From a virus (Duplodnaviria; Heunggongvirae; Uroviricota; Caudoviricetes), in the IMG/VR virus record IMGVR_UViG_2563366928_000009: a stretch of 18,508 nt of DNA; one strand, written 5' to 3'. This document shows, piece after piece, positions 17,454-18,508 of this stretch. The notes under the pieces are model-generated. The model was not told the origin of the DNA and ran no database searches. It saw nothing but the letters and a program-made list of their open reading frames with translations. Both the position numbers and the translations under genes were made by a program. Each line of letters begins with the position of its first letter. Position 1 is the stretch's first letter.

Positions 17454-17780
17454 TCATAACACCGTCGGACAACGCAAATCGTAAATCAGCACGGACACAG
17501 AAAACGGCAGTTCCCCCTGCACGAGGTCTTCCCGCTCAGCAAGATCCGGATTCCGGTACAACATCCCGGTCAGGCGCATGGCAGCCCCCTTCATCCGGGT
17601 TAATGCCTCGCCCGGGATCAGTTCACCGTCCTCACGGATTACCTTATCCCGGCTGCCCTGAATGTAGGCCAGCAGCACAGCTGTAGCCTGACGAACCTTG
17701 TCCATCAGCATGTCATCATCCGCGTCATGGTCAACACGCAGATGAGCCTTGATTTCTTCCAGTGTCAGTAATGCTGTCAC
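17454..17780 (-). CDS. gp6-like head-tail connector protein
   Basis: 108-aa ORF with GTG start at 17780 (AGGAGG RBS) overlapping the upstream stop (GTGA). The N-terminus LTLEEIKAHLRVDHDADDDML is characteristic of gp6-like connector proteins. Confidence 0.75.
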   Translation of the reverse strand: MTALLTLEEIKAHLRVDHDADDDMLMDKVRQATAVLLAYIQGSRDKVIREDGELIPGEALTRMKGAAMRLTGMLYRNPDLAEREDLVQGELPFSVSVLIYDLRCPTVL

Positions 17781-18508
17781 TTTCCACCTCCTGCATCCCG
17801 CCCTCGTTTTGCAGCCAGGGTCCAGCCTGATGAATGAGCTTCTCCGGGTTTATCACCGGTCATGCTGTTGCAGTGCCACAACGAGCCCCCCCACGTCACC
17901 GTATCGCCGGGGTGGTAGGTTTCGCCGGTTCTGAATACACCGCGATAGAGCATCACCGGCAGGGAAAATGTTTTTTCCGTACACTGGCCACTGCTCTGCC
18001 GGACCACCACAGTGAACGACCGTTCGCCGGTCATGCTGACGTCAATATCGGCCACCCCGTCAACCAGGCATTCCCATCCCCGCATCCCGTGCGTTTTTTC
18101 ATACGCCCGCCAGAGTCCGCCCTGGTGTGTGGCATACGTGCCCCGGGGAAAGGATTTTTGCTCATCAATCGCCGGGAATATTTCCAGTGCCGTGGCATCA
18201 CGCCCGTCCTGTGGAGCCGGCAGGGCACTCACCGCATCCAGAACCGCCTTCTGCAGAACTTCCGGATCGTAGTCACGACCGTCGCGCGGAACGGGGATAT
18301 GACTCACGGCATCCGTCACCATCTGCTCGAGCATCGGACGCACATCATCCGGTGTGATACTTTTTCCATCTGCCGGTACCGGAAGTTTTCCGACAGCGTC
18401 ATTCACCGCCCTCAGCAGCACCTCCGGATCATAATCACGACCATCGCGCGGAGCAGGGATATGACTCACTGCGTCCTTCACCATCTGCTCGATCATCGGG
18501 CGTACATC
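17777..18508 (-). CDS. tandem-repeat protein (54-aa repeats), function unknown; 5' end runs off the window
   Basis: The frame stays open to the window edge; the upstream in-frame codons (D V R P) continue the repeat. At least two 54-aa repeats (M[IL]EQMV.DAVSHIP.PRDGRDYDPEVL..AV.DAV..LP.P.DG...) precede a roughly 130-aa non-repetitive C-terminal domain. Lies directly upstream of the connector gene. Confidence 0.6.
   Translation of the reverse strand, partial: DVRPMIEQMVKDAVSHIPAPRDGRDYDPEVLLRAVNDAVGKLPVPADGKSITPDDVRPMLEQMVTDAVSHIPVPRDGRDYDPEVLQKAVLDAVSALPAPQDGRDATALEIFPAIDEQKSFPRGTYATHQGGLWRAYEKTHGMRGWECLVDGVADIDVSMTGERSFTVVVRQSSGQCTEKTFSLPVMLYRGVFRTGETYHPGDTVTWGGSLWHCNSMTGDKPGEAHSSGWTLAAKRGRDAGGGK
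18173..18508. repeat. 162-bp tandem direct repeat (at least two copies, continuing beyond the window)
   Basis: The segment starting TCCGGATCGTAGTCACGACCGTCGCGCGGAACGGGGATATGACTCAC at 18261 is repeated with a few substitutions starting at 18423 (period 162 bp). Confidence 0.7.

Follow-up and report, generated by a model that had tools for sequence, protein, structure and literature searches.

A repeat-bearing gene coupled to the portal gene of lambdoid Escherichia coli prophages may encode an accessory fibre at the portal vertex

Fibritin (Wac) of phage T4 is a trimeric fibre that is fixed to the neck by its N-terminus; loops divide its helical shaft into segments, and a small, conserved folding domain forms the C-terminus. 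The protein is dispensable and is encoded beside the neck genes 13 and 14. The neck-passage structure (collar-whisker) of the lactococcal phage TP901-1 is a non-essential fibre of the portal vertex, with an N-terminal anchor and a C-terminus resembling carbohydrate-active proteins (PMC4493119). Here, we describe a gene, named X in the following, whose 3' part occupies positions 17777-18508 on the minus strand of an 18,508-nucleotide stretch of viral DNA (IMG/VR record IMGVR_UViG_2563366928_000009; the whole stretch is hereafter called the window). It covers the late region of an E. coli prophage of the lambdoid type, with all its structural genes on the minus strand. Our analysis shows that X belongs to an uncharacterised, very widespread and systematically mis-annotated family of portal-coupled fibre-like proteins. 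That X itself is a fibre-shaped accessory protein, displayed externally at the portal vertex, is the reading we favour, with a probability of about 0.5.

Within the window, X is represented by its last 243 codons and a TGA stop (17777-17779), in a frame that stays open up to the edge at 18508; the start of X and the portal gene are located past this right edge. The first-pass annotation, made from the sequence of the window, had described tandem repeats of 54 amino acids (aa) with a 162-bp period, and these are real. A repeat search of the window detected 18243-18346 and 18405-18508 as direct repeats spaced by 162 nt (86% identity over 104 nt), and the best 104-nt self-match covers 89 positions, whereas 20 shuffles never exceeded 49. 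The penultimate unit of the array (18347-18508, minus strand; fragment residues 1-54) contains two predicted helices of 13-14 residues, with a Pro/Asp/Gly loop of 12 residues after each, and the last one (18185-18346, minus strand; fragment residues 55-108) is the most diverged. The 54-aa unit is itself composed of two sub-units of ~27 aa, each made of a helix and an I/L-P-x-P-x-D-G motif. The copies had been described as near-identical with few substitutions, which does not hold for those inside the window (39/54 aa or 72%, and 113/162 nt or 70%, over their whole length) but is true just beyond its edge, where units 2 and 3 of the E. coli AR_0013 allele are identical in DNA (100%). Tandem Repeats Finder did not detect the array in the window, because the latter holds fewer than two full copies.

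As anticipated, the array extends past the window edge, and the complete gene could be read from the closest relatives, in which X is an open reading frame (ORF) of 407 aa with four units or 461 aa with five. Five units are present in AR_0013, which is 100% identical to the window over 17400-18508, while CE10 (100% over the same interval) and M1/5 (99.8%) contain four each. More generally, the X ORFs of E. coli measure 245, 299, 353, 407, 461, 515 or 569 aa, i.e. they differ by steps of whole 54-aa units (one to seven copies). The suspected recent duplication of the repeat is thus borne out, and the occurrence of X in many complete genomes with differing in-frame copy numbers rules out an assembly artefact. 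Short-read assemblies often break, and possibly collapse, at this repeat, so copy number has to be determined from long-read genomes. Many database entries for X are labelled 'partial', their short-read contigs stopping inside the repeat or the adjacent portal gene. The single-unit form (245 aa) is common in short-read assemblies, where identical units may have collapsed; it is also found on contigs longer than 5 Mb.

Next to the array lies a non-repetitive, Cys/Trp/Gly-rich C-terminal domain of 135 aa (17780-18184, minus strand; fragment residues 109-243), which the initial description had also correctly recognised. This domain is conserved and all-beta, with an AlphaFold2 confidence score (pLDDT) of ~97 over residues 111-230, and it has conserved Trp and Tyr residues at W133, W145, Y198, W211 and W229 (alignment A1). 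AlphaFold2 was run on family alignments, for the monomer only, and predicts for the whole protein a single 50-residue N-terminal helix (residues 3-52, pLDDT 91-95), a shaft of eight helices of 13-17 residues with 12-residue loops between them (pLDDT 41-76), and the all-beta C-terminal domain (pLDDT 93-98). A match to the Pfam CBM_5_12 profile is located inside the latter (17864-17932, minus strand; fragment residues 193-215), and this part is predicted to adopt a small three-stranded beta fold that can be superimposed on solved chitin-binding domains. CBM_5_12 is matched by 45 of 59 relatives of X at E <= 0.01, with a best E value of 3.2e-8.

Homology searches had been suggested for X, and no Pfam or NCBIfam family reaches its cut-off. 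Scans of full-length X (locus L003 8381-9601, minus strand) against Pfam, NCBIfam and PHROGs retrieved only a sub-threshold CBM_5_12, noise and 'portal protein' PHROGs, without any decoration-protein family and without a match to the portal models PF04860 or TIGR01537. A precomputed match to PF28083 (QatB), marked as faint, was treated as noise. Against PDB sequences, a profile search retrieved nothing but designed helical repeats and weak matches of the chitin-binding type. Among predicted viral structures, those matching X are mostly 'collagen triple helix repeat', ChiC-binding-domain and tail-fibre proteins. The family itself comprises 5403 clusters at 50% identity in an exhaustive search, distributed over three proteobacterial classes and consisting mostly of stand-alone proteins of about 170-600 residues. 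Runs of at least six (G-X-Y) triplets occur in 40 of 149 family representatives and the tail-fibre motif SAYxxAxxxGFxGTxxxWLxSL in nine, and 9 of 59 members match Pfam Collagen. One representative contains ~20 helix-LPxPEPLPDI units, and the shortest members are almost devoid of shaft. The shaft is thus interchangeable in the family, collagen-like tracts or the tail-fibre motif taking the place of the repeats in relatives.

The genomic context of X is that of a portal-side gene rather than a capsid-side one. The head module is ordered as terminase, protease-capsid fusion, small ORF, HK97-type portal, X, gp6-like adaptor and head-closure protein. In the window, the gp6-like head-tail connector (adaptor) gene lies immediately downstream of X (17454-17780, minus strand; PF05135, E = 7.8e-8), its GTG start overlapping the stop of X in a GTGA (17777-17780, minus strand), an arrangement that fits translational coupling. 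It is followed by the gene of the head closure (head completion) protein (17092-17442, minus strand; PF05521, E = 9.2e-17), whose end coordinate was taken from the RefSeq start in the CE10 and AR_0013 relatives. An apparent X-connector fusion in Klebsiella ('gp6-like head-tail connector protein, partial') was discarded, as the proteins so named are pieces of X truncated where the contigs stop, and a connector gene of its own follows them. Upstream of X, the relatives encode a portal of 454 aa (PF04860, E = 1.1e-81; TIGR01537, E = 2.2e-106), and its TGA overlaps the ATG of X (ATGA) in M1/5, AR_0013, Sakai Sp10, BP-4795, 1717, FSL SP-016 and PAJU2. The protease-capsid fusion gene and a 73-codon ORF are both situated upstream of this portal gene. 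X had been placed between the capsid region and the connector gene; the adjacency to the connector stands, whereas the upstream neighbour is the portal gene. The conserved 73-codon ORF between capsid and portal (L003 10908-11129, outside the window) shares ~55 nt with the beginning of the portal gene and matches phrog_829, of unknown function, but no Pfam family; FSL SP-016, PAJU2, Mcat1 and vB_SBP39 have a small ORF in the same position.

A species-level survey with one genome per species (80 loci, of which 79 have a scorable ORF for the C-terminal domain) covered alpha-, beta- and gammaproteobacterial hosts, including Enterobacterales, Pseudomonas, Burkholderiales, Rhizobiales and Sphingomonadales. 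A portal ORF is present upstream of X in 71/79 loci. In 70 of these 71, it overlaps the start of X by 1-41 nt (mostly 4 or 8) or ends at most 14 nt away; the other has a distant portal fragment only. The eight loci without a portal ORF are mostly cut by contig ends. X is in the -1 frame relative to the portal gene in 45 loci and in the +1 frame in 20, and portal and X are fused in 1/79. The portal-X order is also found in Salmonella phage FSL SP-016, Pseudomonas phage PAJU2 and Rhizobium phage RHph_X2_26. Since separate ORFs prevail across species, the two-gene form is, on this comparison, the ancestral one. The module is also present in Moraxella phage Mcat1 and Burkholderia phage vB_SBP39, with related portals (41-45% identity), but there the connector gene directly follows the portal gene and X is missing, which suggests that X may be dispensable for building this type of head.

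X is under purifying selection whether it is encoded separately from the portal (split alleles) or in one ORF with it (fused alleles), with pN/pS values for the C-terminal domain of 0.22 and 0.15, respectively, and of 0.31 for the N-terminal helix. The proposal that X could be a cargo gene inserted in the head module is not supported, given this selection and the same overlapping post-portal position across three proteobacterial classes. Between genera, the mean identity to E. coli amounts to 54.7% for the C-terminal domain, 51.2% for the portal and 38.4% for the connector. The C-terminal domain is more conserved than the portal in 45/64 loci, and the N-terminal helix is barely recognisable outside Enterobacterales. 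In Sphingomonas (L202 3182-4689 and L208 3819-4812), a small protein consists only of the CBM5/12-like half of the C-terminal domain, and its gene immediately follows that of an S78 prohead protease. The neighbourhood contains AAA or KAP NTPase and HNH genes but no portal gene that could be detected, and these elements may be satellite-like or degraded.

Among the roles considered at the outset, that of a fibre protein gains most from these data. It is backed by the predicted succession of helix, helix-loop shaft and beta knob, by the collagen and tail-fibre motifs of relatives, by the structural matches and by the absence of X from otherwise identical head modules. The accessory character is deduced from this anatomy, from shaft modules common to tail fibres and from the optional presence of the gene. 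X would be made in low amounts, roughly those of portal and neck proteins, and its N-terminal helix would anchor it at the portal vertex or neck, as suggested by where the gene lies, by its overlaps with those of portal and adaptor, and by the fact that the helix is lineage-specific. It would probably trimerise, since relatives have collagen-like shafts, which imply trimers. The C-terminal knob would be held at a distance set by the number of repeats. As the knob is as conserved as the portal, a common ligand or a structural role is more plausible than a strain-specific receptor, and it would probably bind a common glycan. In this case, X could be a dispensable 'whisker', helping the phage in adsorption or retention.

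An accessory, low-copy and modular fibre, as proposed for X, is what the TP901-1 neck-passage structure represents. Nevertheless, the gene of the latter is at the end of the tail module and not between portal and adaptor, and its C-terminus is glycoside hydrolase-like, whereas that of X is CBM5/12-like. With an N-terminus and a shaft that vary and a C-terminus that is conserved, X also follows the pattern of T4 fibritin. However, neither fibritin nor its foldon was matched by X in the sequence and structure searches that were run; the C-terminal domain of X is ~135 residues long and CBM5/12-like compared with a foldon of 27 residues, and its shaft is built from helix-loop units with P-x-P-x-D-G loops. 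Finally, CBM5/12 modules (PF02839), which bind chitin and cellulose, are also found at the tips of phage tail fibres, but the module of X is embedded in a 135-residue domain, the remainder of which has no convincing match.

Database labels suggest a different identity for X. RefSeq (PGAP) marks portal and X as one 'phage portal protein, frameshifted', and phrog_2271 is an 859-position 'portal protein' profile, of which X covers positions 455-859; elsewhere, X is named 'carbohydrate binding domain protein' or 'gp6-like connector'. The portal label can be traced to a one-base difference ~20 nt before the portal stop, with TTCAGGGGGATACTG (G5) giving two ORFs and TTCAGGGGGGATACTG (G6), the state of one large E. 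coli clade, a single ORF of 859 aa, so that the PHROGs matching X as 'portal protein' reflect fused ORFs. IMG/VR contains 76 stretches with G5 and 41 with G6. Among complete E. coli genomes, 747 records have exactly the commonest G6 haplotype and 29 the same haplotype with G5. Portal and X are fused in phage 2851 and split in BP-4795, 1717 and the Sakai prophage Sp10 (ECs_1974 and ECs_1975), which is reported to have conserved all its morphogenesis genes and to transfer to K-12 (PMC2669165). The G5/G6 state follows clades (five parsimony changes on a tree of 122 sequences, two mixed haplotypes), and its interpretation as a phase-variable, hypervariable tract was rejected on these grounds. A second, independent and putative in-frame portal-X fusion of 1237-1248 aa is found in Candidatus Pantoea communis (L153 1186-4929) and in protein P0259, with ~20 helix-LPxPEPLPDI units in place of the E. 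coli repeat. Taken literally, the RefSeq label and the 859-position profile would mean that X is the C-terminal half of a long portal protein, and that the two ORFs represent a pseudogene, frameshifted in a prophage undergoing decay; the abundance of the G6 haplotype is in line with this. We nonetheless judge it very improbable, given the separate overlapping or close ORFs in the lineage of the window (CE10, M1/5 and AR_0013), in 70/79 species-level loci and in Salmonella, Pseudomonas and Rhizobium phages, the split form of BP-4795, 1717 and the transferable Sp10, and the lack of relaxed selection on X in split alleles. X adjoins a true portal gene of the HK97 type, to which it is coupled in translation and, in G6 alleles, fused, but it has no portal domain or portal-family match of its own and owes its label to the fused ORFs only. 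The prevalence of separate ORFs thus indicates that the 'frameshifted portal protein' label is an annotation artefact. Fused alleles retain both the start codon (ATG) of X and the G run that serves as its ribosome-binding site; they could therefore still yield free X, and the fusions may be tolerated. The same G run could also make the junction a recoding site, at which a -1 slip on AGG GGG AUA or on A_AAA_UGA would let split alleles produce mostly portal and some portal-X, the fusion being hard-wired in G6. Indeed, the G6 junction, FRGDTEKMTERELS, is exactly the product of a -1 shift at the G run. Besides, the E. coli junction AGG GGG AUA CUG CGA AAA UGA would permit single-tRNA slippage, with perfect re-pairing after a one-base backward slip at GGGGG and AAAA. 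BP-4795 has G_AAA_AAA_UGA, and a Shine-Dalgarno-like AGGGGG precedes A_AAA_UGA by 8 nt, a layout that resembles dnaX. However, the runs are of the P-site type only (G_GGG, and A_AAA before UGA), without an X_XXY_YYZ heptamer, and G5/G6 is largely clade-specific. A conserved programmed frameshift is rendered unlikely by the mixed frames across species, the ATGA overlap of PAJU2 without a slippery run and a junction RNA fold that is not significant (z = -1.64). These features are more simply explained as a ribosome-binding site and a coupled start for X, and recoding appears improbable to us. Slightly less probable again is its extension in which the G run sets a ratio, some or all portal subunits carrying a 400-residue fibre-like extension inside the head, whose CBM5/12-type domain acts on a universal target such as peptidoglycan during or after genome delivery; if true, this would be a new kind of portal-tethered internal structure. 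Sp10 encodes tRNA-Ile (anticodon CAT) and tRNA-Arg (TCT) outside the window (L213 20706-20958), which would read AUA and AGA/AGG, rare codons present within the last seven of the portal gene (AGG GGG AUA CUG CGA/AGA AAA).

Several observations weigh against an external fibre at the portal vertex. The window protein has no (G-X-Y)n collagen-like tract, its match to CBM_5_12 (PF02839; 22.2 bits, E = 1.4e-4) is under the gathering cut-off of 26.2 bits, and literature searches, including virion proteomics and structural work, returned nothing relevant to X. The portal-like conservation of the C-terminal domain is unlike that of ordinary receptor-binding tips and could reflect binding to a virion component or a role as folding nucleus. 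Moreover, the portal C-terminus faces the capsid interior in solved portals, and the fused alleles (747 complete-genome records and phage 2851) hang X on this end, which favours an internal location unless free X is made. X might indeed be an internal head protein, its N-terminal helix being attached to the crown of the portal within the capsid, either by binding or, in fused alleles, through a covalent link. It would then build an extension along the axis, much like the barrel of the P22 portal or the inner-body and ejection proteins, with a C-terminal domain acting on a universal target (peptidoglycan after ejection) or on a virion partner. The genes of SPP1 gp7 and Mu gpF directly follow the portal gene, as X does, and in phages of these types the post-portal gene encodes a portal-bound minor head protein. 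The fused alleles also place a long helix directly after the portal C-terminus, as in the C-terminal barrel of the P22 portal, although no homology of X to this barrel, gp7 or gpF was found and none of them has collagen-like or carbohydrate-binding modules. An internal location would be compatible with a fusion to the portal C-terminus that arose at least twice (in the E. coli G6 clade and in the Pantoea type, with a different repeat), with the purifying selection that persists in fused alleles, with a C-terminal domain whose conservation across host classes equals that of the portal, as would suit a partner that does not depend on the host, and with the very little head volume that, by our own estimate, twelve copies of ~45 kDa would occupy. 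We regard it as unlikely all the same. To our knowledge, collagen-like tracts, the tail-fibre motif and CBM5/12 knobs have been described in external fibres only. Fusion is also rare outside E. coli, free X may be produced from the fused alleles, and a shaft varying from no repeats to more than 20 would be odd for a defined inner structure. The fibre-like architecture, the carbohydrate-binding-type knob and the head-module location of the gene would equally suit a head fibre or decoration protein standing on capsid hexamers or vertices instead of the neck, and the head fibres of phi29 consist of repeated helix-turn-helix units. Yet X matches no decoration-protein family and overlaps the low-copy portal and adaptor genes instead of neighbouring the capsid gene, which suits ~12 copies per virion and not hundreds. 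Of the head decoration initially envisaged, the high-copy version is thus rated below a low-copy portal-vertex protein, and we hold a capsid-surface location to be quite doubtful.

The remainder of the window completes the lambdoid late region. From the right edge leftwards, the minus strand encodes X, the gp6-like connector, the head-closure protein, an HK97 gp10-like protein and a gp17-like tail completion protein, followed by the major tail protein with an Ig-like end, the tail chaperones G and T and the tape measure, and then by the M, L, K, I and J homologues, Lom and the tail fibre, with an ISL3 transposase at the left end. The Ig-like domain of the major tail protein (15528-16241, minus strand) is C-terminal (Ig_2, Ig_3 and I-set at residues ~150-233) and would represent a second surface-exposed accessory domain in the same virion. 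An A_AAA_AAG slippery heptamer (15143-15149, minus strand) directly precedes the TAG of the tail assembly chaperone gene (15140-15541), with the T-domain ORF next to it (14835-15116), in the classic arrangement of the lambda-type G/GT -1 frameshift. A gene for an outer-membrane protein of the Ail/Lom family (4454-5053, minus strand; E = 4e-126) occupies the usual lambdoid moron position between the J-like tip and tail fibre genes. The transposase gene (19-1239, plus strand) is intact and belongs to the ISL3 family (DDE_Tnp_ISL3, E = 1e-58). It lies just past the tail-fibre end of the prophage and is annotated as ISEc53-like in the best whole-window match of the E. coli genome collection, which is 98.2-99.3% identical. 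Two putative ORFs, one of 125 aa (1072-1449, minus strand) and one of 155 aa (1646-2113, plus strand), are found between transposase and tail fibre genes and have no Pfam match.

To conclude, the X family is present in the head module of Shiga-toxin phages and in prophages of about a fifth of complete E. coli genomes; it has no curated family model, and literature searches found no experimental description of it. The two-gene form deserves annotation as two intact genes, and prophage-intactness tools that rely on pseudogene flags will underrate prophages with split portal and X. The natural split/fused polymorphism and the variation in repeat number make X easy to test experimentally. If X is indeed a portal-vertex fibre with a conserved glycan-binding knob, it would provide long-tailed Shiga-toxin phages with an extra device for adsorption or retention.

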